Source: Actinomycetota bacterium (lineage in GTDB: Bacteria > Actinomycetota > Coriobacteriia > Anaerosomatales > D1FN1-002). From it: a DNA stretch of 63,485 nt. The stretch's first letter is position 1. Each line of letters starts with the position of its first letter. Below, in pieces: positions 33,341-63,328 of the stretch. The position numbers and the translations under genes are program-made. Location of the stretch: contig JBBIJK010000007.1 of assembly GCA_037445995.1 (NCBI GenBank), positions 1-63,485 of the forward strand, given 5' to 3'. Under the pieces are notes generated by a model. The model made no database searches. It was not told the DNA's origin and saw nothing but the letters and a program-made list of their open reading frames with translations.

Positions 33341-34315
33341 GTGAGGGGAACGACAGGCGGCAAGTGGCTGCTTGCCTGTTCGCTGGCTTCAGTGATGATC
33401 GCGGGGTGTTCCTCCACCGTCACGCCGTCTGGTTCGCAAGTCGAGACCGGTTCTAGCGACGGCGTCATCGTCTTGAGCGTTCCTCCGATGGACGCAACCG
33501 GGTCCTCGGGGTCATTCGCATCCCTGCGCTCCGAGGCGGACACGACGGCGCTGCCGAAGAAGCTGATGGTGTACAGGGTCAAGCCTGCCGGCGTGACCAA
33601 GGATTCCTTCGAGGCACGCGCCCGCAAGCTCGGATTGACGGGGTCGACGGAAGATCTCGGAGCCAGCTTCCAGGTCGTTGGTCCTGATGCGAGCTTCGAG
33701 GTCGACAAGCTCACCGGTTCTTTCGACTACACCACAGACGCGCTCGAGAAGCAGACGCAGCCCGTCCGGAGGCTGCTGCCTGACGCAGAATATCGGCAGA
33801 GGGCCCAGGCATTCCTCAACTCGGCGGGCCTCATGGAAGAAGCCGCAGAGTTCCGGGGTGTGAATCGCGGCAATGTCGTGCACGACTTCGAGAACGGTCA
33901 GTGGGTTGCGCAGCCGTACATGATCGAGGTGCGCTTCAGCCACAAGCCCCTGAGCGGCATCGCCTTCGACAAGGGCGTCGGCCCCAAGATCGTGGTCCAG
34001 TTCGGCGAGGACGGTCAGATCCTCGGTGCGATGTCGGTGTGGCGACATGTGGAGCCGTTCGCCGAGTACCCCCTCAAATCCCCCCAAGACGCGCTAACCG
34101 CTGTCCGAAACGGCGAAGCTGCCTTCTTCGACGTCCACAGGCAAGACAGCGGGGTTGTCAAGAAGATCTCGCTCAGCTACATGAATGAGCCTCGCGGCTA
34201 CGACCAGCAGTACGTCCTTCCCGTGTACCTCCTCGATGGTGTCGCCGCTGAAGGCCGGTCTTTCGTCGTCGTGACGCGAGCGATTCCGGACGCACTGCTC
34301 CGAGTCGATCCCTAG
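33341..34315 (+). CDS. Hypothetical lipoprotein
   Basis: GGAGG RBS then GTG; lipobox MIAGC; looks more A/T-rich than neighbours by eye. Confidence 0.75.
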   Translation: MRGTTGGKWLLACSLASVMIAGCSSTVTPSGSQVETGSSDGVIVLSVPPMDATGSSGSFASLRSEADTTALPKKLMVYRVKPAGVTKDSFEARARKLGLTGSTEDLGASFQVVGPDASFEVDKLTGSFDYTTDALEKQTQPVRRLLPDAEYRQRAQAFLNSAGLMEEAAEFRGVNRGNVVHDFENGQWVAQPYMIEVRFSHKPLSGIAFDKGVGPKIVVQFGEDGQILGAMSVWRHVEPFAEYPLKSPQDALTAVRNGEAAFFDVHRQDSGVVKKISLSYMNEPRGYDQQYVLPVYLLDGVAAEGRSFVVVTRAIPDALLRVDP

Positions 34316-47848: not shown

Positions 47849-49109
47849 CCGCGCTCCCTCCAAGCACGCGCGCGACCTCGGCCAACGCGCCATCGTCATC
47901 ATCCACCGCGACAGCGCCCGCGTCGAGCGCCTCTCTCCAAAGCGCGGTCGCCTCGCCGTCGCCGAAGTCCCTCCGGGGGCCCATGCCGCCGACGAGGACG
48001 AGCGGGTCGCCGGCCCGGACCGCTGCACGGAGGTTCGCTATGTTGCCCCGGCCGAACGGCGTCGCGCTGACCACGCGGATGTCGGCCGAGGCCGCCAGCG
48101 TCTCCGTCTGACTGAGGGCGGCGGGGTCTGGCGAGCCGAAGGCGGGCAGGGTCACGTGACGCGCCCGGACGGCCTGCGCGACGGCCTGGTCGGTGTCGCC
48201 CAGCTCCAGGGCGCCGCAGGAGACCCGGAAACCGGCCAGCGCCAGACTCCGCAGCAGGCGCGCGCCGTGCCCCGCGCCGCCCACCACGAAGACCTCCTGG
48301 TCCCTGGTTGGCGCGACAGCCTCGTCGCGCAGGACCGGCGTCACGGTCGCCGAACCGGTCACCGGGTCCGTCCCGATCACCGCCCTGACCCCGAACACCT
48401 CCGAGACGTTCCTGGCCGTGAGCACCGCGCGAGGCGGCCCGGCTGGGCCCAGCGCGCCTTCGTGCACCACCGCCAGCTCGTCGGAGTAGCGCGCGGCAAG
48501 GTCGAGGTCGTGGAAGACCGCGAGGACCGCGAGTCCCGCGTCGGCGAGCTCCCGTACGAGGTCCAGGATCTGGAGCCGGTGGTTGAGGTCGAGATGGCTG
48601 ACCGGCTCGTCGAGAAGGAGCACCCGCGGTTCCTGCGCCAGCGCCTGTGCCAGCACAAGCCGCTGCAGGTCGCCACCGGAAAGCGTGTCGACCCGCTCGG
48701 CCGCCAGCCGCCACGTGTCGGTGCGGCGCATGGCGTACTCCACCACCCGCCTGTCCCGTTCCCCGGGGCCTCCGAGCGGCGGCAGATGAGCGTGGCGGCC
48801 CATCTCCACGAAGTCGAATGAAGGGAATGCGAAGGGCGCCGCGGTGGACTGCGGGACCACCGCGACCAGCCTCGCCCGCTGACGCTCCGTGAGGCTTCCG
48901 ACCGGGTCGCCGCACAGCTCGACGTCCCCGGCGAGGATCCCGGCCGCGCCGGTGACGGCACGCAGCAGCGTGGACTTGCCGGCCCCGTTCGGACCTACGA
49001 GGCCGACCACCCTCCCGGCGCCCACCAGCAGGTCAGCGCCTCGCACCACGGGGCCGTCGTCATAGCCGACGTCGACGCCGGCGAACCTCAGCGGAGACGC
49101 TTCGCTCAT
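47832..49109 (-). CDS. btuD: Cobalamin ABC transporter ATP-binding protein with C-terminal extension
   Basis: GPNGAGKST, LSGG..QR, LLDEP..HLD, HDLDLAARY; in riboswitch-led operon. Confidence 0.82.
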   Translation of the reverse strand: MSEASPLRFAGVDVGYDDGPVVRGADLLVGAGRVVGLVGPNGAGKSTLLRAVTGAAGILAGDVELCGDPVGSLTERQRARLVAVVPQSTAAPFAFPSFDFVEMGRHAHLPPLGGPGERDRRVVEYAMRRTDTWRLAAERVDTLSGGDLQRLVLAQALAQEPRVLLLDEPVSHLDLNHRLQILDLVRELADAGLAVLAVFHDLDLAARYSDELAVVHEGALGPAGPPRAVLTARNVSEVFGVRAVIGTDPVTGSATVTPVLRDEAVAPTRDQEVFVVGGAGHGARLLRSLALAGFRVSCGALELGDTDQAVAQAVRARHVTLPAFGSPDPAALSQTETLAASADIRVVSATPFGRGNIANLRAAVRAGDPLVLVGGMGPRRDFGDGEATALWREALDAGAVAVDDDDGALAEVARVLGGSADVPYR

Positions 49110-50134
49110 CTCGGCCTCTCCCCGCGGACCAGGAGCCATACGAAGAACGGCCCACCCAGCACCGCGGTCACGATGCCGACCGGGATCTCCACCGGGGCGA
49201 GCACGGTCCTGGCCACGAGATCAGCGAGGACCATGGTCAGGGCGCCGGCCAGCATGGACGCCGGCAGCAACCGGCGATGGTCGGGACCCGCCACGAGCCT
49301 CACGGCGTGGGGGGTCATCAGCCCGACGAAGCCCACGAGCCCCGACACCGACACCGCGGCGGCCGTCACGAGCGACGCCAACGCCAGGAGCAGCGTCTTG
49401 AGCCTCTCGACCGGCAGGCCCAACTCCGACGCGCGCTCGTCCCCGAGCAGCACGAGGTTGAGCTGGCGGGAGACGAGCAGCGAGACGGTGGCGCCGATCG
49501 CCAGCATCGGTGCGACCGCGACGACGTACTCCCAGGACGCCCCCTCGAGGCCGCCCATCATCCAGAAGACCACCGACGCCATCGACTCCCTCGCGAGGAC
49601 CATGATGAACGAGGTCACCGCGGCCAGCGTGTAGGAGACCGCGACCCCCGCGAGCAGGAGCGAGACACCGTCGACGCGTCCGCGACGCGTCGCCAGCCGC
49701 ACCACCAGGGCGACGGCGCCGACCGCCCCGAGGAACGCGCCGAGCGGCACCACCCCCGGCCTGAGCGCGGTTGCGCCCGCCGTGAGCGCGATGACCACCA
49801 CCACGCCCAGCCCCGCGCCCGACGAGACCCCCAGGATGTAGGGATCGGCCAGCGGGTTGCGGAAGACCGCCTGATAGAGCGCCCCGGCGACCGCCAGACA
49901 GGCGCCGACGAGCGCCGCCAGCAGCACGCGGGGCAGCCTGATGTCGACCACCAGGGCGTCGGCCAGGCCGCCCGGACCCGAACCGGCCCCCAGCGACCGG
50001 CCCAGAGCCGCGACGACGTCGGCCGGAGGGACGTACACGGCGCCGAGGGCCACGCCCGCCACCACCGCGACCGCCAGCGCCGCGCCCAGCGCGACGGTCA
50101 GGGTGACAGCAGAGCGCGGCCCTCGGACCGGCAA
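49106..50134 (-). CDS. btuC: Cobalamin ABC transporter permease (FecCD family)
   Basis: IRLPR, RNPLADPYILGVSSGA, GFVGL..PH, EIPVG...GGPFF. Confidence 0.85.
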   Translation of the reverse strand: MPVRGPRSAVTLTVALGAALAVAVVAGVALGAVYVPPADVVAALGRSLGAGSGPGGLADALVVDIRLPRVLLAALVGACLAVAGALYQAVFRNPLADPYILGVSSGAGLGVVVVIALTAGATALRPGVVPLGAFLGAVGAVALVVRLATRRGRVDGVSLLLAGVAVSYTLAAVTSFIMVLARESMASVVFWMMGGLEGASWEYVVAVAPMLAIGATVSLLVSRQLNLVLLGDERASELGLPVERLKTLLLALASLVTAAAVSVSGLVGFVGLMTPHAVRLVAGPDHRRLLPASMLAGALTMVLADLVARTVLAPVEIPVGIVTAVLGGPFFVWLLVRGERPR

Positions 50135-51457: not shown

Positions 51458-51748
51458 CTAACAGCCTCCGGTCGAGCAGTCGCACGAAGGCCCGGTCCCG
51501 CGAAGCCAGCCGCTGATCACGCCGGCCGCGCAGCCGACGCCGGGCACGACCGACACGGCCCCCGCGGCGCAGTTTCGCGCGCACGCCCCGCACTCGATGC
51601 AGGCGTCGCGGTCCACGATGACCGCACGCGCCTCTCGCATCTCGAGCACCCCGTGCGGGCACACCTGCGCGCACATCCGGCAGCCCGTGCAGGCGTCCGG
51701 GTCCAGGGTCAGCGTCACCACGCCCTCGAGGTAGCGGAGCCCGCTCAC
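51458..51748 (-). CDS. hgcB: Mercury methylation ferredoxin HgcB
   Basis: Two CxxCxxCxxxC motifs including CIECGAC, the GVGCA motif, Cys-rich C-terminus; GTGA overlap with hgcA. Confidence 0.93.
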   Translation of the reverse strand: MSGLRYLEGVVTLTLDPDACTGCRMCAQVCPHGVLEMREARAVIVDRDACIECGACARNCAAGAVSVVPGVGCAAGVISGWLRGTGPSCDCSTGGC

Positions 51749-52827
51749 GCCAGGCCGCCAACGAACGCGGCGGCGACCCAGCCGGCCAGCGCGAACACCC
51801 CGGCGCCGACCTGCCAGGGAAGGGATCTCCGCATCTCGACCAGCACCCCCGAGAGCGACGTGAAGGTGGTGGAGCCTGTGAAGTTCATGGCCGCGAAGGA
51901 TGAGACGGCGGTCACGGCGGCGAGAGCCCAGACCGTCATGAGGGGACCCGCGCCGGCCGCCAGGAGCAGCGGTCCGGCGAGGACAGCGCCTGCCAGAGCC
52001 CCCTTGACCGAGAACATCCTGCCCGGGATCCACGGCAGCAGCGCGGGCGTCACCAGGGCGCCGGCGAACACCCCCAGCGCCACGGCCGCCACGAGCGCCC
52101 CGCCGCGCGCCACACCCTCCGCGGCCGAGTAGCCCCAAGGGCCCACCGCTCCGAGCGCCACCGCCGCGAACGCGAACAGCAGCGCCCGCGGGCGCCAGAG
52201 CGCCGACAGCTCGACCGGGACGAGAGCGAGCCTCTCCTTGAGGGTGAAGCCGACGCGCCGCATGCCGCCCTCCGCCGACATCCCGGCAGCGAGGAAGGCG
52301 AGGATGTCGCGCGCGCGGACTGGCCCGTACACGACGCGGAAACCGCATCCCGCCCGAACCTCGTGCGCGGCCACACCCGGCGCACCGAGCTGCGGCACGA
52401 CGAGGACCTGGTGGCTGACCACCTGCGCCAGCCCGACCCTTCGCACGCGCGAGACGATCTCAGCGGTCCCGAAGGTGCCCTTCCCCGCGGCGCACCAGAC
52501 GTTCACGCCTCGGGTGTCGATGACCAGGATCCACGCGTCGACGCCGCCAAGCTCGCCGCGCAGCGCGTCGAACGACAGCTTGTAGTTGGCGCTGACCAGC
52601 ACGGGGGACGAGTCGTCCGGCGAGCCCACCGCGTAAAGGCCGGGTCGCACCCGGTGGTCCGAGCGGCCGACGTTCCAGCGCACGCGCCAGCCTCCGAGCC
52701 GGTCCGCGAGGGTCAGCGTGGTGGACACGACCGGGACCGGGCCGGGAAGGGTCGGAAGCCGGCCGGTCACGAATCCCTCAGCGTATCGCGAGTAGTCCTC
52801 CGGCGAAGCCGGGCAGCATCCGCTCAT
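51745..52827 (-). CDS. hgcA: Mercury methylation corrinoid protein HgcA
   Basis: PGLYAVG, SANYKLSFD, cap helix GVNVWCAAGKGTFG, PQLGAPGV, C-terminal TM region with MNFTGSTTFTS.SGV..EM. Confidence 0.96.
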   Translation of the reverse strand: MSGCCPASPEDYSRYAEGFVTGRLPTLPGPVPVVSTTLTLADRLGGWRVRWNVGRSDHRVRPGLYAVGSPDDSSPVLVSANYKLSFDALRGELGGVDAWILVIDTRGVNVWCAAGKGTFGTAEIVSRVRRVGLAQVVSHQVLVVPQLGAPGVAAHEVRAGCGFRVVYGPVRARDILAFLAAGMSAEGGMRRVGFTLKERLALVPVELSALWRPRALLFAFAAVALGAVGPWGYSAAEGVARGGALVAAVALGVFAGALVTPALLPWIPGRMFSVKGALAGAVLAGPLLLAAGAGPLMTVWALAAVTAVSSFAAMNFTGSTTFTSLSGVLVEMRRSLPWQVGAGVFALAGWVAAAFVGGLA

Positions 52828-53147
52828 CGCCTGGCTCCCGGCAGCCCGCAGCAACCGCGCTCGCCGGCCGAACGGGCACGCGCCGCCAGGTCGGCCGCGG
52901 CGGCAGCCACCCGCTCGAACGCCTCGGGCGCCAGGGAGCAGTGAAGCCATGGGCCGACCTTCCGGGCGCGGACCAGACCCGCGTCCCGCAGTCGTCTCAG
53001 GTGATGGGAGGTCAGCGCGTCCGACGCGCCCAGATGCTCGGCGATCTCGCACACGCACTTCTCGCCGCCTGCGAGCAGCTCCACGATGCGCAACCTGTTC
53101 TCGTCGGCCAGAGCGGCGTACGCGCCAGCATGCCCTTCGGTCTCCAT
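52824..53147 (-). CDS. ArsR/SmtB-family metalloregulator
   Basis: ALADENRLRIV.LL, EKCVCEI, SHHL..LR.AGLV, C-terminal CC; ATGA overlap with hgcA. Confidence 0.92.
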   Translation of the reverse strand: METEGHAGAYAALADENRLRIVELLAGGEKCVCEIAEHLGASDALTSHHLRRLRDAGLVRARKVGPWLHCSLAPEAFERVAAAAADLAARARSAGERGCCGLPGARR

Positions 53148-53154
53148 GCCGGCG

Positions 53155-53184
53155 ATCTTAGTCAAATGAGCATTTGATTGTCCA
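53155..53184 (-). promoter_or_regulatory. Promoter of arsR-hgcAB with palindromic operator in the spacer
   Basis: TGGACA-N18-TAAGAT ending 7 nt before ATG; perfect 7-2-7 inverted repeat tcaaatg-ag-catttga at 53162-53177. Confidence 0.75.
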
Positions 53185-53233
53185 GCACCGCGACGACCGC
53201 GCGAGCGGCCGGACCTCGACTGGAGACGCCTCT

Positions 53234-53809
53234 CTAGAAGAGGCCCTGCAGGTCCTCGATGGACTGCGCGGCGTGCTCGAGATGCCAGTCCTCCAGCGAG
53301 AGATAGAAGCGGGGGTTGAAGACCAGACCCATGTGCACGGTCAGGTCGATCACCTCCTCGAGCAAGCCGTCCGCCTTCATGAGCAGGTCGACGGCCCTGG
53401 GGTTCACCCTGTCGTCGCCGGAGGCGGGAGGGACGAGGAACACCCGCTCGTCGCCCTCGCCAAGGACGATGTCGAACAGAAGGTTGCCCTCCGCGAGCAG
53501 GAAGACGCTGGCGCCGTCGGCCCCGATGTCCTTGCGGTACGACGTACCCTCCTTGCGGTACCCCGAGATCTGCGCCACCTGGGCGGCATCGACCCTCATC
53601 GCGCAAGGCGGGACCGGAAGTCCCCCGAGCACCTCCCGCAGATTGGCCAGCGCCACCAGCGTCCGCTCCGACAGGTCGATCTTCAGCGCGCACAACGCCA
53701 AATCGGCCTCGGCGACGGACCTCGCGCTGAGGAACACCTCCATCATCTCGCGCGGTTCGCCGGAGTACAGGAGGCGGAGCTTGTCGAACTCCCTGACGGT
53801 GCTGATCAC
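53234..53809 (-). CDS. Hypothetical protein (paralog A of 55759-56337)
   Basis: 191 aa from inferred GTG; shares EADLAL, LANLRE, AEGN, YLSLEDWHLEHAA with paralog B. Confidence 0.85.
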   Translation of the reverse strand: MISTVREFDKLRLLYSGEPREMMEVFLSARSVAEADLALCALKIDLSERTLVALANLREVLGGLPVPPCAMRVDAAQVAQISGYRKEGTSYRKDIGADGASVFLLAEGNLLFDIVLGEGDERVFLVPPASGDDRVNPRAVDLLMKADGLLEEVIDLTVHMGLVFNPRFYLSLEDWHLEHAAQSIEDLQGLF

Positions 53810-54021
53810 TGCGATACCAGTCTTCGATCCCGGTCCGGCGCGGCGGCGCGGCGGGAGGGGCGGGCGGCTCGTCGGTCGCACATTCCGTATCGGCAGCGGC
53901 TGGCCGCTTGATGAGCGCCCGGGCGGCACCTCGCGACGAGCGGAGGCTCAGAAGGGACGGTTGTGCCCGCCGATACAGCCCGGCGGCGGGGTGATAGAGT
54001 CGAGAAAGGAGGTGTCGGGCC

Positions 54022-54861
54022 ATGTGCCGGTTCTGCGTGCAGCACGGTGACGGTGACAGGTGGTATCGCGAGGCCGCCAACTACGCGGTCGACCTCGAGG
54101 AGGATCTCACCCGGCGCGGCTACATAGTCGACTTCATACGCGACTTCGACGCCAACCGCCGCCGGGCCCTGACCGGTCTCGAGGTCGTCGAGCGGCTCCC
54201 GGCGCCGCTGGAGCGGGCCCTGAAGTCGCGCTTCTCGGCCAAGATGCAGGTGAACCACTTCGGGCAGCCAGTTCCCATCGAGGAATGCGAACGCATCTTC
54301 GATACCGCCACCTCCATCGTCAGCCTCCCGTGCCCGTGCCGGACGTTCGCGGGCAAGCCCCAGGACGGCTTCTGCATCGCCATGACGGTGACGCCAGCGG
54401 AGCACATCCTCCGCGAAGGCATGGCCGGCTACGGGGACGGCCCGGACACGCTCCGGTTCGAGCGCCTGGACAAGGCCGGGGCCATGGAGCTGCTCCGCAA
54501 GGCCGAGGAGCGCGGCCTGATGCACTCGGTGTGGACGTTCCAGACCCCGTTCATCGCCTCGATATGCAACTGCGACCTGTCCAGCGGCTGCATGGCGATG
54601 CGCCTCACGGTCGGCCACGGCGCCAAAGTGATGTGGCGGGGCGAGGACGTCGCGGTGCTGGACGCCGAAGCCTGCTCGGGGTGTCGCGCCTGCATCAGGC
54701 GATGCCCGTTCGACGCGATCGGCGCGCCGGCGAACGGCGGACCGGTCGACCTCCGTCAGGAGGACTGCTGGGGCTGCGGGGTGTGCCGCTCGGCGTGCAC
54801 GCTTGGCGCGATCACGCTAAGGGACCGCCGCGAGGTGCCCGCGGTCGCCTCGGTCTGGTAG
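54022..54861 (+). CDS. 4Fe-4S dicluster domain-containing protein
   Basis: AGGAGG RBS; N-terminal CxxCxxH, CPC, CNC....C, two CxxCxxCxxxC motifs. Confidence 0.9.
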   Translation: MCRFCVQHGDGDRWYREAANYAVDLEEDLTRRGYIVDFIRDFDANRRRALTGLEVVERLPAPLERALKSRFSAKMQVNHFGQPVPIEECERIFDTATSIVSLPCPCRTFAGKPQDGFCIAMTVTPAEHILREGMAGYGDGPDTLRFERLDKAGAMELLRKAEERGLMHSVWTFQTPFIASICNCDLSSGCMAMRLTVGHGAKVMWRGEDVAVLDAEACSGCRACIRRCPFDAIGAPANGGPVDLRQEDCWGCGVCRSACTLGAITLRDRREVPAVASVW

Positions 54862-56357: not shown

Positions 56358-58322
56358 CTACACCCTGAACCCGCCGAGCGTCCGGCGAAGCTCGTCGGCC
56401 TCCTCGCGCACCGAGTCGGCCGAGCCCACGAGGTCCCTCGCGACCCGCGCCGTCTCATCGGCGCTCGAGGTCACGTCCTGCATCACGACCGCGAGCTGCT
56501 CGGCCGCGACCTTCTGCTCGGTGGCAGCGGTGGCGATCTCGCGGGCGGCGTGCGCCGTGCCCTCCATCTGGTCGACGATCCGGTCGAAGCTGTCGCGCGA
56601 CGCGCGGCTCCGCTCGACACCAGCCTGGGCGAGCTCCGCCTGGTGAAGGGCGGTGCGGGTGAGGTCGGAGCTGGCGCTCTGGATTCCGGCGACCAGGCCG
56701 TTGATGCGGCCCGCCGACTGCCTGACCGACTCGGCCAGTGTTCGGATCTCGGTGGCCACGACGGCGAAGCCGTGTCCGGCGTCGCCCGCCCGGGCCGCCT
56801 CGATCGCCGCGTTCAGCGCCAGGATCTTCGTCTGCTCGGCGATGCCCGAGATTATCGTGGTCATCTCAGTGATGCTCGCGGCCACCTCGTCCATGGCCTG
56901 CGCCGCCTCGGCCGAGTCGCTGGCGCCCGCCGCCAGCTCGCCCATCGCGCGATCGCCGGTCTCGACGCTCTCGCGGCCGGACTGCGCGACCTCCAGGGCG
57001 TTCTCCGCGACGTGCAGCACGCGCTCGGCACTGCCGGCCACCGACGAAAACGTGCGCGAAAGCTGCGAGATGGTGGCGGTGATCTCGGCGATGGACGAGG
57101 CCTGCCTTGACGCGCTGTCCGAGGCGACGCGGGCGGAGTCGCCGATGTCGCCCGACACCCCGCCCAGGCGGTGGGCCGACGCCTGCGTCTGCCCGAGCAG
57201 CGAGCGCAACCCATCGATCATGGCGTTGAACGCGCCGCCCGTGACGCGAGCCTCGCGGTAACCCGTCTCTGGCACCGTGACCGTGAGGTCGCCCCCGGCC
57301 GCGCGGCTGGCGGCGTCCGCGACTCCCGCGAGGGGCTTGGTCATCCCCCGCCCGACCGCAAAGGCCGCGCCGATGGAGGCCCCGAAGGCGACGACCAGGA
57401 AGGCGGTGGCGAAGAGCGCGTAGCGCGTGATCGCGTCAGTGTAGGGTGCGAGCGGAAGTCCGACGTGGAGCATGCCGACGACCATGCCCGTCGGGTCGCG
57501 CAGCGGCTCGTAGGCCCCCAGGTAGCTCTCGCCCAAGACCTCGACCTCGCCCCGGAAGCCTTCGCCGGAGGCCAGGGTGGACTCGCGGACCTCGTCGGCG
57601 ACGGGCACGCCCAGAGAGCGGGTCCCATCGCCGTCCTTGATGTTCGTGGAGACGCGGGTCCCGGCCTGGAACACCGCGGCAGTCCCGCCGACCTTGTCGG
57701 CGATGGAGTCCACGAACCGGTGGTCCTTCTTGAGAGTGGAGAACACGAAGACCCACCGGCCGTCGTCGAGGGGCGCCAGCGCGACACAGCCGAGCGCCCC
57801 CTTCTCCTCGCCCGGGACCACGGTGCCGCCCAGGGCGTCGGCCGGAGTGACGGCGAGCGCCCCGGCCAGCCCCAGCCGGACCAGCTCCCTGTCGGGCACC
57901 ACGCCGAAGAAGGCGGTCGCGTTCCGTGAGCGCAGGCCCTCGGTCAGCAGCGGCCACTCCGCCACATGCGCGCTGCCCGCGCTCGCCGCGATGAAGCGGC
58001 CCTCGCCATCCACGACGGCGATCGCCGTCTGGTCGAAGCGCGTCGCGCGCTCCGTCAGCTCCTCGCGAAGGGCGGTGCCCTGCGAGGTCCGGATCCCGTG
58101 GTCGCCGGTCAGCCTCACGGCGTCCGCCAGCGTGGAGGAGCGGATGTCGCCCAGGCTGTCGACCGCCACCCGCATCCCCGTCTCGACCGCGCGCGTTCCT
58201 TCGACGCGCAACGCGCGATCGTACTCGCGGATGCCGAAGTAGGCCGCGGACAGAAGGGGCACCGCGGTGATGCTCGCGAACGCGAGGACCAGCCATGCCT
58301 TCAGGGTGTAGGTGCGCTTCAA
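56358..58322 (-). CDS. Methyl-accepting chemotaxis protein with Cache sensor and HAMP domain
   Basis: Two TM; RVSTNI...G.R..G and YEPLRD..G.VVGML Cache signature; [32 protein letters not shown]. Confidence 0.93.
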
Positions 58323-58514
58323 GTACGCCTCCACAACGACCACGCGGTCCGTGAAGAGTATGCAAGAAGCGTACCCGTTCTGGATACGCCCCCGCTGTGG
58401 GCGGCTCGGGCGGATGGTGACCCACGGCACGGCGACCGCCTCGCAGGCGTATTATGCTATCAGCCCGGAGCGCGGCGACGCGTCGCGCTCACGCCACGCG
58501 ACCGGTGAGACGCC

Positions 58515-61500
58515 ATGAGCCCGCCCGCCGAGAGACCCCGTCGGCATCCCCGCGCAGTCGCGGGACCCGCCGTGGCGCTCGCACTCGTGGCTGTGGCCGC
58601 CCTCGCTTGGCCGCTGCTGGCCACGGGCGCGCCGGGCACGGCCGCGCCTCGCAACGGCGGCAAGTCCGCCCGAGAACCGCTCCCCGCGTACGCCCCCGGC
58701 GAGGTGCTCGTGCGGTTCCGCGCGGGCACGCCGGCGGCGGAGCGCGCCAGGGCCCACGCAGCGACCGGCGCGCGCGCCAAGCGCCGCTTCCCGCGCCTCC
58801 CGGGCCTGGAGCAGGTGACGTTGCCGGAGGGCGCTTCTATCGAGGCCGTCATCGCGGCGTATCGCCGCCGTCCCGACGTCCTGTACGCCGAGCCCAACCA
58901 CCTCGTCCGGTCGCTCGCCGTGCCCGACGACCCCCGCTTCGGCGAGTTGTGGGGGCTGCGGAACACCGGGCAGACAGGCGGGACCCCCGACGCCGACATC
59001 GACGCTGTGACCGCGTGGGACCGCGCCAAGGGCAGCGGCTCTGTGGTCGTGGCTGTCATCGACTCAGGGATGTCGGCCTCGCATGAGGACCTCGCGGGCA
59101 ACCTGTGGGTCAACCCCGGCGAGGTGGCCGGCAACGGGGTGGACGACGACGGCAACGGCTGGGTGGACGACGTCAGCGGGATCGACCTTGTCCAGGACGA
59201 CGTCACCCCCACCGACGAGCGCCTGCTCTTCGGCCACGGCACGCACGTGGCCGGGACGGTCGGCGCAGTGGGCGACAACGCCGTGGGGGTCGTCGGCGTC
59301 AACCACGACGTGTCGATCATGCCGATCCGCGTGCTCAACGCGCTGGACGTCGGGACCTATGCCGACATCGCGGCGGCCATCGGCTACGCCGACGCCCACG
59401 GGGCCAGGGTCGTGAACATCTCGCTGGGGGGAGGAGCGTTCAACCAGACCCTGCACGACGCCATCGCGGCCTCACCGGGGCTTGTGGTGTGCGCCGCAGG
59501 CAACGACAGCCGCGACTCAGACGTCACCCCCACCTACCCCGCCTCGTACGACCTGCCCAACATCCTGTCGGTCGGCGCGAGCACGCACCACGACGCCCGC
59601 GCCTCCTTCTCGAACTGGGGCGCGGGCAGCGTCGACGTCTTCGCGCCCGGTGACGACATCCTGAGCACCGCGCCACGCTGGGACCGGGTCTTCCGCGACC
59701 AGATGCACGACCTGGGCAACTGGGACACCTCGCGCTTCCTGCGACAGCCCTGGGCCGCGAACGGGACCCGCTTCGTCAGCCCGGCGACCGCCGCCGCGAA
59801 CCCGAACTACCCCATCAACGACATGACGTGGATGGTCACCACCGGCACAGTGGATCTCTCCGGCTACACGCGCGCCGCGCTGCGGTTCGACTACTGGCTC
59901 GACGTGGAGCTGATGTACGACTCCCTGCTGGTGCTCGTCAGCGAGGACGCCACCTTCACCTCCGACGAGCGGGTGGCGCGGCTGACCGGCCGGTTCAGGA
60001 CGTGGTACTCGCGCCTGGTCGATCTCAAGAGATGGGCTGGCAAGAGGGTGCACGTCGCCTTCGCGCTGGCCAGCGACTCGTCGATCACCTACGAGGGCGT
60101 CTGGGTCGACGACGTCGAGGTGTGGGGCGGCAACGACGACCCGCGCTACGCGCTGGCGGACGGGACCTCGATGGCCGCGCCGCACGCGGCGGGGCTGGCG
60201 GCCCTGCTGCTGGCCGAGAAGCCGTCGCTGACGACCGCCGAGCTCAAGGCGCTCGTGATGAGCACGGCCGAGCCGACCCCCGCGCTCTCGGGCCTGTGCG
60301 TGACGGGGGCGCGCATCGACGCGGGAGCGGCGCGCGCGGCGCTGGGGGACCTCGACCCGCCGGTGACGACCGCGTTTGGCGTCCCGGCCGGCTGGGCCGC
60401 GGGCGACGTCGAGATCTCGCTTTCCGCCACGGACACCGAGTCGGGCGTGGCCCAGACGTGGTACACGCTGGGCGGCGGGAGCCCCCAGGCGTACGCGGGC
60501 ACCTTCACCGTCAGCGCCGAGGGCACCACGCCCGTCGGCTACTGGTCCATCGACGCCAGCGGGAACGTCGAGCCCACCCGGACGGCCGACGTCCGCATCG
60601 ACCGGACGCCGCCGGTCACCGCCTCGGACGCCCAGGCCACCTACGAGGGCACCGCGACCATCACGCTTCTGGCGACCGACGCCCTGTCCGGCGTCGCGCT
60701 GACCGAGCACAGGCTCGACGGCGGCGCGTGGACGGCCGGCTCGGTCGTGACGGTCGGCGAGGGCGGGGACCACGATCTGGAGTACCGCTCGACCGACGCG
60801 GCGGGCAACGTCGAGGGCACCCGCGCGGCGGCCTTCCACGTTGTGGCGCCCTACGTGGACGCGGTGCCCGCCGGGACGGACGTCACGGTCGTCTCGGACT
60901 CGGGCGTCACCCTGACGTTCTCGCATGTCAGCGCGGACGGGACGGTCACGATCACCCGGCTGCCAGACCCCGACCGGCGGCTTCCCGCCAGCTGGTTCTT
61001 CGTCCCCGGCGCCGCTTACGAGATCGAGCCCGAGGTGGCGTTCACCGGCGAGGTCACGGTCACCGTCCCCTACACCGAGCCGTCCGCCTACGGCGGAGCC
61101 GAACGCCACCTCAAGCTGCTCCACAGGAACGACTGGGGCTGGGACGACGTCACCGTCTCGATCGACACGGCCGGCGACACCGTCACCGGGCGCACCTCGG
61201 ACTTCTCGCCCTTCGCGGTCGGCTACACGCCGTGGGAGCCCGGCTCGCCATCCAACTCCGGCTCGCCGGCCACGCCGCACAAGGGATACGCGACCAACAC
61301 CAACAAGTGCGCGGTCTGCCATGCCGTGCACGCCGCCGAGCCCACCGGGACGGTGCTGCTCCCGGCGACGGCCGGAGACGCGTGCGTCTACTGCCACGTC
61401 GACACCGCGCTGGGGCTGCGCCGCATCTACGGCGGCCTGCGGGCGGCCTACCTCGCGGACTCGCCGCGCGGGGCGTTCGGCGGCGGCTTCGCCCACGACG

Positions 61501-62084
61501 CCGGCGGGACGGCGTGCGCGGACTGCCACAGCGTCCACGGCGCCGGGACCTTGGACGGGGGCAACCTGACCAAGATCCTCAAGGACTGGGCGGTCTGGCG
61601 CAGCGCGCCTGGCGCCATGGACGACTACTCCACCTTCGCGCTCGCGCGCTGGCCCTCGCCCGATACCGAGCCGGGCAAGTACTCGCAGCAGACCGCGTGG
61701 TGCACCGGGTGCCACAAGTACTTCGTGGAAAGCTACGAGACCACCGTCCAGATGACGGCCGGCGGGATGTGGGTCTATGCGAAGAGCCACGTGATGACGT
61801 CGGCGCCCGGCGTCTACTCCAACCCCGCGGCGTCGGTCTCCGCGACGGTGGCCTGGGCCCCCTCGGTCCACTGCCGGAGCTGTCACGACGCGGGCGCGGT
61901 GGACACCACCGGCGGCATCGTCCCGTCAAGCTTCCCGCACTACACGCCCAGCGCGTACCGCTTCGCCACCGTGGCGGACTCGGCCGCGTCGGCGTCGGGG
62001 CAGAACGCCACCGGGACCGTCGACGGGCTGTGCCTGCGATGCCACCGCGACGGCTCCGGCGACGGCGTGGGGTCGGGCTTCTAG
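58515..62084 (+). CDS. Secreted S8 subtilase fused to a C-terminal hexaheme c-type cytochrome domain
   Basis: Signal peptide; VIDSG, HGTHVAG, AAGN, GTSMAAP; inserted jelly-roll-like domain; two PPVT beta repeats; six CxxCH motifs. Confidence 0.9.
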   Translation: MSPPAERPRRHPRAVAGPAVALALVAVAALAWPLLATGAPGTAAPRNGGKSAREPLPAYAPGEVLVRFRAGTPAAERARAHAATGARAKRRFPRLPGLEQVTLPEGASIEAVIAAYRRRPDVLYAEPNHLVRSLAVPDDPRFGELWGLRNTGQTGGTPDADIDAVTAWDRAKGSGSVVVAVIDSGMSASHEDLAGNLWVNPGEVAGNGVDDDGNGWVDDVSGIDLVQDDVTPTDERLLFGHGTHVAGTVGAVGDNAVGVVGVNHDVSIMPIRVLNALDVGTYADIAAAIGYADAHGARVVNISLGGGAFNQTLHDAIAASPGLVVCAAGNDSRDSDVTPTYPASYDLPNILSVGASTHHDARASFSNWGAGSVDVFAPGDDILSTAPRWDRVFRDQMHDLGNWDTSRFLRQPWAANGTRFVSPATAAANPNYPINDMTWMVTTGTVDLSGYTRAALRFDYWLDVELMYDSLLVLVSEDATFTSDERVARLTGRFRTWYSRLVDLKRWAGKRVHVAFALASDSSITYEGVWVDDVEVWGGNDDPRYALADGTSMAAPHAAGLAALLLAEKPSLTTAELKALVMSTAEPTPALSGLCVTGARIDAGAARAALGDLDPPVTTAFGVPAGWAAGDVEISLSATDTESGVAQTWYTLGGGSPQAYAGTFTVSAEGTTPVGYWSIDASGNVEPTRTADVRIDRTPPVTASDAQATYEGTATITLLATDALSGVALTEHRLDGGAWTAGSVVTVGEGGDHDLEYRSTDAAGNVEGTRAAAFHVVAPYVDAVPAGTDVTVVSDSGVTLTFSHVSADGTVTITRLPDPDRRLPASWFFVPGAAYEIEPEVAFTGEVTVTVPYTEPSAYGGAERHLKLLHRNDWGWDDVTVSIDTAGDTVTGRTSDFSPFAVGYTPWEPGSPSNSGSPATPHKGYATNTNKCAVCHAVHAAEPTGTVLLPATAGDACVYCHVDTALGLRRIYGGLRAAYLADSPRGAFGGGFAHDAGGTACADCHSVHGAGTLDGGNLTKILKDWAVWRSAPGAMDDYSTFALARWPSPDTEPGKYSQQTAWCTGCHKYFVESYETTVQMTAGGMWVYAKSHVMTSAPGVYSNPAASVSATVAWAPSVHCRSCHDAGAVDTTGGIVPSSFPHYTPSAYRFATVADSAASASGQNATGTVDGLCLRCHRDGSGDGVGSGF

Positions 62085-62095
62085 CGTTCGACGCC
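62056..62095. repeat. 40-bp direct repeat, copy 1
   Basis: ccggcgacggcgtggggtcgggcttctagcgttcgacgcc; 39/40 identical to 63384-63423. Confidence 0.92.
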
Positions 62096-63328
62096 TACCA
62101 GGTTGCCCGAGCCGTCGACGGTCAAGCTCACGCGCTTCTCGACGGAGACCCCTCCCTGCGAAGCCCAGTACTCCCACGTGTACGTGGTGCCCATGGGAGT
62201 GCTCACGACTATCGGTTCGTTGACGTTCACGATCCTGCCCTGCAGGTCCGGAAAGCTCTCGTACAACAGCCCGATCGGAGCTGCGGCCGATCCACCGACT
62301 GCTGAATACGGCGAGGAGGCCGTGCTATCTCCCGAGAGCGGCTTCGACATGCTGCGAAGCCACCAGTTCATCCCGATGAGGAGTCCGCCGATAAGCGCGA
62401 GAGTCAGCAGGACGCTCATGAGGGACGCGACCAGTCGGCGGCCCAGGCTCGCAGCGGGCGCCGGAGGTGTCGTTCTTAGCGGCGCCGAGGAGCGGCGGCG
62501 CCTGCGCCTGGTGCGTTCGTTGCCACCGAGGGCGGACAGCGACACGATCAGGAGTAGTAACAAGAAGAGCTTGGCCGAATCGCCAAGGAACGCCGCCGCA
62601 GCCCATGCCGCCGCGAGAATCGCGGCAAGCAGAACGAGCAACTTGACCAGCCTCGAAGTCCTAGGTGCCTCGGTCGCTCTCGACGGCTGTTTCGCCCTTG
62701 TCCGCCCGCCGTCCACTCCCGCCCGATGATTCGCATGCGCCTCGATGACCTTCGGGTCCGCCGATCTGTCAACCTCCGTCACAATCTTCACCAGGGCGGA
62801 CTGGTCGTCCGGGCTCAACGGGTGCTGGCTCATGAAGTTGTGTCGCACTGCCATGCGGTCGGGCAGTTCAGATATCTCGCTCACTCGCGCCGCGCTGATT
62901 GAGTCGAGCTCCAGCCTGCTGGTATCTGCGCCAACGAAGACGACGAGGCCGCGAACGCGGTCAAGCGGGATCTCGTGCCCCGCGTCGGCCATCGCCTGTC
63001 GTAGTACGACGAGATGCTGGTCGTTCTGCTGCAGAGGGTTCTGGAAGGGTTCGTTGCGCCCACCCGGGTAGCAGGCGGTCCATCTTCGGTCGGCGAACGT
63101 CCCCCGCAGCATGGCGCCCCGGCGAGCCTTGGTCTCGAGCACCAGTATCCCGATCTGGTCCACCAGCACGTGATCGAGCTGGGCCGTCACGAGACCGCGC
63201 GGCGTCTCTCTGGCCACCAGCACATCGTGGAGGACCCGGAACCCGTACTCCGACTCCAGCTTTGAGAGAGTAGCGGCCACCTTGAGTTCGGCCGAGTCCC
63301 CCACCATGCGAGCAGCTTCGTAGTCCAC
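62081..63328 (-). CDS. NERD (nuclease-related domain) protein with C-terminal TM helices
   Basis: G..AE..V, LHDV, QLDHVLV...GILVLETK, FQNPLQQN..H; three hydrophobic helices. Confidence 0.88.
   Translation of the reverse strand: MDYEAARMVGDSAELKVAATLSKLESEYGFRVLHDVLVARETPRGLVTAQLDHVLVDQIGILVLETKARRGAMLRGTFADRRWTACYPGGRNEPFQNPLQQNDQHLVVLRQAMADAGHEIPLDRVRGLVVFVGADTSRLELDSISAARVSEISELPDRMAVRHNFMSQHPLSPDDQSALVKIVTEVDRSADPKVIEAHANHRAGVDGGRTRAKQPSRATEAPRTSRLVKLLVLLAAILAAAWAAAAFLGDSAKLFLLLLLIVSLSALGGNERTRRRRRRSSAPLRTTPPAPAASLGRRLVASLMSVLLTLALIGGLLIGMNWWLRSMSKPLSGDSTASSPYSAVGGSAAAPIGLLYESFPDLQGRIVNVNEPIVVSTPMGTTYTWEYWASQGGVSVEKRVSLTVDGSGNLVGVER

Follow-up and report, generated by a model that had tools for sequence, protein, structure and literature searches.

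The protein P0001, encoded in the genome of an Actinomycetota bacterium of the order Anaerosomatales (class Coriobacteriia; GenBank assembly GCA_037445995.1), joins a subtilase of family S8 to a six-haem c-type cytochrome in one polypeptide. Its gene lies at 58515–62084 (+) of contig JBBIJK010000007.1, of which the whole stretch analysed, 63,485 nucleotides, is called the window below. The predicted domains run from a signal peptide and prodomain through the protease head and a stalk of beta-rich domains to the haem-binding module at the C-terminus. As judged from the domain order of related proteins, the hexahaem cytochrome of P0001 occupies the wall-anchor slot of a head-stalk-anchor plan.

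The hexahaem module

The C-terminal module (P0002; residues 901–1189, 61215–62081, +) is complete, with a conserved YxxW...PHKGY lead-in and six CxxCH motifs. These start at nucleotides 61308, 61383, 61515, 61701, 61872 and 62031, exactly the positions given by the first-pass annotation of this DNA, and they hold 12 of the 14 cysteines of P0001. All 12 motif cysteines and all six motif histidines are invariant in the 61 homologues of alignment A1 (61/61), so the motifs are not a product of chance. Five further histidines (H922, H939, H1008, H1092 and H1142 in P0001 numbering) are likewise invariant in 61/61, a histidine at most 16 residues upstream of the third CxxCH is present in all 61 sequences, and M1094 is kept in 56. 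The five invariant histidines together with the one before motif 3 would thus supply six distal histidines for six bis-His haems, which agrees with the earlier count of at least six additional histidines. Several CxxCH motifs with conserved candidate distal ligands place the module among the multihaem c-type cytochromes, haem binding being predicted. Known profiles fit it in a general way: TIGR01905 (paired_CXXCH_1) gave 34.1 bits against a cut-off of 25.2 on the module alone, and on the whole of P0001 the doubled-CXXCH profiles gave 21.3 against 20.6 (Pfam PF09699) and 23.0 against 25.2, slightly under the cut-off (NCBIfam). A protein atlas search returned generic "doubled CXXCH" clusters (scores 0.89–0.93). 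Prediction of a two-copy complex of the haem module from alignment A1, run without controls, scored 0.02 and 0.17 against a mark of 0.42.

By its sequence, the module is a full copy of a predicted mature, secreted hexahaem cytochrome of about 300 residues that usually stands alone. In the stand-alone proteins the lead-in opens the conserved region right after the signal peptide, and in P0001 it does so after the third stalk domain. The source genome encodes a stand-alone paralogue on contig C12 with a signal peptide of its own (MKKTIILALT...AYA), 56% identical to the module by tblastn and 50% by blastp, as well as two remoter paralogues on C12 and C16. A large protein database holds 170 stand-alone homologues of 158–506 residues (E <= 1e-3); few carry a source label, and those that do are Coriobacteriia. 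Across 401 genomes of the class the family was found in 89 (E <= 1e-10), all 89 of them in the source's own order, with no match among 253 genomes of other orders (families f27–f30 and three more).

The module also recurs behind other heads, and in all 12 long proteins in which it was found (P0001 and P0003–P0013) the match to its profile extends to the final residue. P0003, a 1113-residue protein labelled as coming from a metagenome-assembled genome (MAG) of a Coriobacteriaceae bacterium, has a five-repeat YVTN beta-propeller head and shares with P0001 the two OmpL47-type domains, the following beta domain and the hexahaem module, with 57% identity over residues 609–1189 of P0001 and 51% over 285 residues of the stalk region. 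The heads of P0004–P0011 consist of Big_13 Ig-like repeats and extra haem domains, and those of P0012 and P0013 of FG-GAP (PF14312, precomputed Pfam). No S8 head is present in P0003–P0013. The suggestion that the end of P0001 is a reusable module is thus borne out, as its last ~290 residues recur both alone and behind other heads. The YVTN beta-propeller protein on this cassette of two OmpL47 domains, beta domain and hexahaem module, 1113–1115 residues long, belongs to a sister genus (P0003; G257:C82:2040-2912).

The wall-anchor position

The relatives of the protease head show what is usually found at this end of the protein. Among the six nearest S8 relatives scanned, three end in three CW_binding_2 (CWB2) repeats, one in DUF5648, one in CarboxypepD_reg repeats and one without a further domain. 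The three that carry CW_binding_2 follow the order prodomain, S8, spacer and 3x CW_binding_2, with the MAM-like insert and an Ig/cadherin-like spacer in two of them. The S8 relatives of 1000–1220 residues were considered as possible carriers of hidden haem domains, but no CxxCH motif occurs in the 11 open reading frames (ORFs) fetched, of which five are cut by the 3' end of their locus and one by the 5' end. The common plan of wall-anchored S8 subtilases is a prodomain, a catalytic domain and C-terminal binding or anchor domains; P0001 has the hexahaem module in place of the last of these, and no CWB2 match (PF04122) was found in it at E <= 1.

CWB2 repeats are frequent in the source genome, with 56 matches in about twenty ORFs, and the only other S8-like ORF of that genome, on C3 and 29% identical, has them as well. 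The CWB2 ends of the S8 relatives and of stalked proteins in the source genome therefore define a local plan of head, stalk and wall anchor. The first-pass annotation had suggested, as one of three readings, that the haem module may anchor the protease. This reading gains comparative support, of an architectural kind, because the module sits where the S8 relatives and stalked enzymes carry CWB2.

Two further proteins of the source genome deserve description in this connection. One (C6:27475-30543, +) has a metalloprotease-like head with an HExxH motif (HELGHWLNLRD), two OmpL47 barrels and three C-terminal CWB2 repeats, and so has the same stalk as P0001 but the usual anchor. The other (C20:33314-36538, -) is a frame of 1075 residues with 8 CxxCH motifs, the C-terminal end of which (33344-34243) matches CW_binding_2 three times; by its predicted domains it is a multihaem cytochrome with a wall anchor.

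Integrity of the gene

The P0001 gene is a genuine single gene, one in-frame fusion. Both the ORF list and the translation of 58515–62084 (+) give 1189 residues from an ATG start with no internal stop, and the contigs of two samples tile this one ORF. An uninterrupted 1189-residue frame and an in-frame union of S8 protease and cytochrome, as first described, are therefore both present. A Shine-Dalgarno-like stretch (GGTGAG) and a TATTAT box lie upstream. A sigma-70 scan of the gene region gave no promoter-like site, and a single terminator-like site inside the ORF, at 60978, is within chance expectation (0.7). The stop codon (62082–62084, +) falls in a 4-nucleotide overlap with the end of a convergent NERD-domain ORF (62081–63328, -).

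Four public runs, X1 to X4, contain the stretch; all are subsurface metagenomes from one study, and the best of them may be the source sample of the window. Among the listed data sets with the gene there is no RNA. Logan contigs from these runs were aligned to 58000–62600. Over the ORF, the contigs of X1 and X2 are free of joints, indels and loose ends, and their depth is even (~13–15 in X1, ~22–27 in X2). Record 2 of X1 covers 59935–60841, from the region of the catalytic serine into the stalk, its record 5 covers 60894–61645, and record 14 of X2 covers 60444–62085, from the stalk through the haem module and stop codon; with these three records both domain boundaries are bridged. Overlaps between Logan contigs are only ~30 nucleotides at some points, and no listed X1 piece lies over 59903–59934. 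Cover is partial in X3 (depth in 24 of 30 bins) and X4 (11 of 30). The X2 strain differs from the window at ~1–2% of positions, and the differences listed within the ORF (n = 30) comprise 21 synonymous and 9 non-synonymous changes and no stops.

A chimeric contig, joining a protease gene to a separate cytochrome gene, is a very improbable source of the fusion. The source assembly is of metagenome type, in 60 contigs, stalk domains of the OmpL47 type recur in it, and the assembly graph branches at 62095, shortly past the stop codon, all of which speak for such an error. Against it, the separately built contigs of two samples agree in order at even depth, and P0003, from another assembly, shows the same continuity from stalk to haem module. 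The stalk paralogues of the source genome share 67–74% DNA identity with the gene, which is too low for k-mer mis-joins, and no near-identical copy of its DNA occurs elsewhere in that genome (best, 81% over 59 nucleotides). Read mapping across the domain join had been proposed as a check, and the contigs of two samples reveal neither a chimeric joint nor a missed stop there.

The branch itself, in the stretch 62066–62600, is a separate observation. In each of X1, X2 and X3 one contig departs from the window sequence at 62095, 11 nucleotides past the stop codon, and the window's own continuation, the NERD ORF, has only ~55–70% of the depth of the gene. The downstream neighbour therefore seems to vary among co-existing strains.

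The protease head and the stalk

The head of P0001 is, on its predicted activity, a degradative, deseasin-like subtilase precursor that includes a prodomain and has all of its catalytic residues. Read by eye, the N-terminus is signal-like: residues 1–39 (58515–58631, +), beginning with the start codon, form a putative Sec signal peptide with a charged n-region, a hydrophobic core (residues 15–36) and a TGA/PG junction. A prodomain of the fervidolysin type follows at residues 55–128 (58677–58898, +; Pfam PF22148, Fervidolysin_NPro-like, E 2.8e-13, 50.5 bits against a cut-off of 21). Pfam PF00082 (Peptidase_S8) matches in two stretches with 153.4 bits against 21.8. The first catalytic part, placed by PF00082 and the deseasin alignment, spans residues 176–386 (59040–59672, +) and carries D183, H241 and the oxyanion residue N330. 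The second, placed by the second stretch of the deseasin alignment, spans residues 544–610 (60144–60344, +) and carries the nucleophile S552 within GTSMAAPH. The motifs IDSG (starting at residue 182), HGTHV (241), AAGND (327) and GTSMA (550) stand in the Asp-His-Ser order with the oxyanion Asn, and together with a profile score above the curated cut-off they assign the head to family S8.

The catalytic domain aligns with deseasin MCP-01 (3vv3_A) at E 5.1e-81, with the Asp, His and Ser in register. The match covers residues 137–387 and 544–610 of P0001, and deseasin lacks the ~155-residue insert that separates the catalytic His and Ser of P0001. This insert (residues ~388–543) includes an InhA-like MAM or choice-of-anchor-J-like domain at residues 435–536 (59817–60122, +; Pfam PF20773, E 1.1e-10), to which NCBIfam NF038128 gave 18.4 bits, under its cut-off. 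The MAM-like insert recurs in S8 relatives from the same order. The end domain of deseasin itself is a PKD domain.

Beyond the head, residues ~616–790 (60360–60884, +) form a stalk of two OmpL47-type beta-barrel domains (NCBIfam NF047446, two stretches, E 6.4e-35, 119.4 bits against a cut-off of 40). The same stalk is found in proteins of the source genome on C6, C14 and C34, at 42–50% identity. A third beta-rich domain (residues 791–900, 60885–61214, +), which ends in ...FSPFAVGY, is conserved in P0003; it has no Pfam or NCBIfam match and no paralogue in the source genome. The parts named in the first reading of this sequence were thus recovered: the signal peptide by eye, the pro-region as the fervidolysin-type match, the intact S8 set as D183, H241, N330 and S552, and the beta-rich spacers as two OmpL47-type barrels and a domain at about residues 791–900 without a family match.

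Genomic context of the hexahaem family

Gene context, together with the multihaem content of the source genome and of cultured relatives, points to the hexahaem family as a probable part of the extracellular electron-transfer apparatus. The stand-alone hexahaem genes of the source genome adjoin genes for membrane-anchored NHL-repeat proteins and other multihaem cytochromes, and one adjoins ResB, the System II protein of haem attachment, for which the genome has two matches above cut-off (PF05140), one of them beside a hexahaem paralogue. At 77 family loci taken from MAG assemblies that carry a name, each with flanks of at most 6 kb, an NHL-repeat neighbour was found at 60 (blastp E <= 1e-10 to NHL proteins of the source genome) and a further ORF with at least 4 CxxCH motifs at 56. 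NHL-repeat genes are also found in the cytochrome clusters of Thermincola. The contig scan with the pattern KCAVCH[AS]VH, by pattern only, gave no Thermincola-named record among these 77 loci. As a side observation, the stand-alone hexahaem gene and the gene for a membrane-anchored NHL-repeat protein look like a conserved, undescribed two-gene unit (60/77 loci; C12 and C16 in the source genome).

The source genome comprises 1.66 Mb in 60 contigs, with a 100% complete rating and 68.7% G+C, and contains 22 stop-to-stop frames of at least 100 residues with at least 3 CxxCH motifs, a heavy investment in multihaem proteins for so small a genome. Cultured subsurface members of the class (Anaerosomatales) have 17–18 multihaem cytochromes, and for one of them Fe(III) reduction is obligate, according to passages of PMC9686372. 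Parvivirga hydrogeniphila is a cultured Fe(III)-reducing member of the class (PMC9686372). Two frames of the source genome are of giant size: one of 3096 residues with 49 CxxCH motifs (C5:22010-31297, -) and one of 1881 residues with 26 (C16:34517-40159, +).

Distribution of the fusion

As far as the searches reach, the predicted architecture is unique and built from known parts. Searches with the module found 12 proteins among those of 653–2081 residues and 10 among those of 507–2000 residues, of which only P0001 contains PF00082. These word-based protein searches score 8000 candidates, and S8-cytochrome fusions of other families lie outside their reach. A search of 1.84 billion representatives with full-length P0001 gave 115,193 matches; among the best 150 of these the module is present, besides P0001, only in P0003 (aligned to residues 609–1189), and the A1 profile matched none of the 148 others. 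S8 proteins of the P0001 type (E <= 1e-30) occur in 88 of the 146 genomes of the order, and, by eye among the matches listed, S8 and hexahaem module share one ORF in the source genome only. Three proteins with 13–21 CxxCH motifs (P0190, P0261 and P0267) were considered as further fusions, and the two that were scanned, P0190 and P0261, have no S8 domain.

In the openly searchable literature, with subscription journals and supplements outside the search, no description of a fusion of an S8 protease with a multihaem cytochrome was found. The words "peptidase", "protease" and "subtilisin" do not appear in a survey of Desulfuromonadia cytochromes, nor do "cytochrome" and "heme" in a survey from 2008 that covers 227 prokaryotic subtilisins. 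The statement that this architecture had not been characterised before holds for the databases and literature searched.

Comparison with known extracellular cytochromes

A parallel to the module is CwcA, a cell-wall hexahaem cytochrome of Thermincola. Like CwcA, the module is predicted to have six sites of bis-His type in about 300 residues and to be secreted, and it belongs to a monoderm-type lineage rich in multihaem proteins; CwcA stands alone, whereas the P0001 module is fused to an enzyme. Passages of PMC7911101 propose that CwcA stacks across the peptidoglycan and model it on OmcS.

OmcS, a nanowire subunit of Geobacter, is also a hexahaem protein. Its first motif has the CxxCHxxH arrangement, which is present twice in the module (C932..H939 and C1001..H1008), and OmcS is ~100 residues longer. 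The first-pass annotation had set the module beside OmcS, a kinship that found no support: the single module sequence gave no PDB match at E <= 10, the family profile gave 38 matches at E <= 10 among all PDB sequences, none of them named OmcS, and Foldseek gave none for the module at E <= 0.001. The best profile matches were photosynthetic reaction-centre cytochrome subunits (6.9e-5) and 6i5b_A (2.3e-4). In PMC7911101, 6i5b_A is OcwA of Thermincola potens and the OmcS structure is 6EF8.

A known link between a subtilase and an extracellular cytochrome is the OzpA-OmcZ pair, on which Kai et al. 2021 reportedly also bears. Passages of PMC9473688 and PMC13748539 describe how the subtilisin-like OzpA of Geobacter cleaves OmcZ before nanowire assembly, and omcZ-ozpA operons as widespread. 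There too a protease of the S8 type and an extracellular multihaem cytochrome are linked genetically, but by separate neighbouring genes, with removal of a C-terminal part and with an octahaem OmcZ, whereas P0001 is one polypeptide with a C-terminal cytochrome of another family.

Possible function and alternative explanations

The best of the proposals considered here, with about an even chance of being right, is that the haem module docks a degradative protease into a cytochrome conduit of the cell wall. P0001 would be exported by the Sec pathway, receive its haems from System II machinery and lose its prodomain. The module would then hold the protein at the surface, stacking on or co-assembling with a wall-embedded chain of the same hexahaem cytochromes, and the stalk would project the active protease outward. 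In general terms, the hexahaem cytochrome would be a plug for mounting different heads on the electron conduit of the cell; heads with extra haems would extend the wire, and a protease or beta-propeller as head would bring functions other than redox ones to the interface between cell and mineral. Judged from the position it shares with the anchors of relatives, there is an even chance that the module plays the part for this protease that CWB2 repeats play in those relatives. The protease most likely feeds the cell with peptides or clears protein from the mineral-cell interface, and would less likely be a dedicated cytochrome-processing enzyme.

Several points weigh against docking. Haem attachment, surface location, docking and polymerisation are all predictions from sequence, and the equivalence in position to CWB2 is an argument from architecture; the C-termini of 5 of the 11 S8-relative ORFs lie beyond the fetched locus. 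The fusion was found only once, as a single protein cluster on one contig in one of 146 genomes of the order; it could be of recent origin and lack a special function. Its gene is separate from the cytochrome clusters and has a chemoreceptor gene and the NERD gene as neighbours, and the searches found no link in sequence or fold to any cytochrome known to polymerise. A stronger version of the proposal, in which copies of the module assemble by themselves into a cytochrome wire that spans the wall or lies outside the cell and the fusions are "decorated" subunits mounting protease, beta-propellers and haem arms, is improbable.

By analogy with OzpA, P0001 might instead be a maturation protease that cleaves precursor cytochromes and so frees hexahaem units, the fusion placing it at its substrates, which could be N-terminally extended hexahaem proteins or the linker of P0001 itself. 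This is unlikely, if somewhat less so than the wire of decorated subunits. The Geobacter pair provides a precedent (PMC9473688, PMC13748539, again from passages of these), precursors in which the module is fused occur in the lineage, and P0001 is the sole close S8 protein of its kind in the source genome, the only other match being 29% identical. Yet the catalytic domain is nearest to deseasin MCP-01, a degradative, collagenolytic enzyme (E 5.1e-81), this type of S8 protease occurs in 88/146 genomes mostly without a link to haem, and 3 of the 6 relatives scanned carry wall anchors, typical of surface nutrient proteases. Nor does the presumed substrate fit: the hexahaem family is not OmcZ-like by sequence, with no OmcZ among the PDB profile matches, and stand-alone members have a signal peptide only, without a pro-part to be removed. 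No cytochrome gene adjoins that of P0001, and there is no other in the window.

The fusion might also be a recent, nearly or fully neutral product of recombination in the shared OmpL47 stalk, its halves keeping their old jobs or the protease releasing itself, with no coupling between them. Both parent types exist: a haem-free one with S8, MAM and two OmpL47 domains (P0192 matches residues 36–790, and P0240 and P0251 are similar), and P0003, with beta-propeller, two OmpL47 domains, beta domain and hexahaem module, 57% identical over residues 609–1189. The singleton status of the architecture also fits such an origin. The ORF has nevertheless stayed intact in two strains ~1–2% apart, with a 21:9 synonymous excess among the 30 differences listed, the cassette of stalk and hexahaem module is kept across two genera of the family, and the recurrence of the module behind four kinds of head speaks for a functional role of its place at the C-terminus. 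On this evidence a neutral origin is as doubtful as a maturation role. Control of protease activity by the oxidation state of the haems, finally, is hardly to be expected, since the covalent link between the two parts is all that speaks for it, ~290 stalk residues in three beta domains separate head from haems, and S8 relatives work with unrelated C-termini.

Neighbouring genes

The divergent upstream neighbour (56358–58430, -), separated from the P0001 gene by a gap of 84 nucleotides, encodes a 690-residue methyl-accepting chemotaxis protein with sCache_3_3, HAMP and MCPsignal domains. Farther upstream the window contains a CdhD-like ORF (51458–53058, -; CO dehydrogenase/acetyl-CoA synthase delta, E 5.9e-13), which in the ORF list overlaps a 4Fe-4S ferredoxin-domain ORF, as well as an ArsR-type regulator (52824–54080) and a FecCD permease (49106–50134). 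The CdhD-like, ferredoxin, ArsR and FecCD genes are consistent with an anaerobe.

Significance

The passage of electrons through thick bacterial walls is poorly understood. CwcA is the only proposed wall cytochrome and could not be purified, as reported in passages of PMC7911101. The main interest of P0001 lies in a lineage-wide hexahaem end-module in the place of a wall anchor, more than in the single gene. If the protease matures cytochromes, the OzpA principle would extend to a different phylum and cytochrome family. If the fusions are decorated subunits of a wire, they would amount to a natural means of presenting catalysts on a cytochrome nanowire. Groups now attempt to attach catalysts to conductive protein wires by engineering, according to part of a preprint (bioRxiv 10.64898/2026.07.18.739370), and a docking module would offer a natural template for doing so. 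Ultimately, if the module docks into or builds a chain of its own kind, the wall conduit of Fe(III)-reducing subsurface Coriobacteriia would have been identified, and these cells would be seen to mount non-redox enzymes on it.

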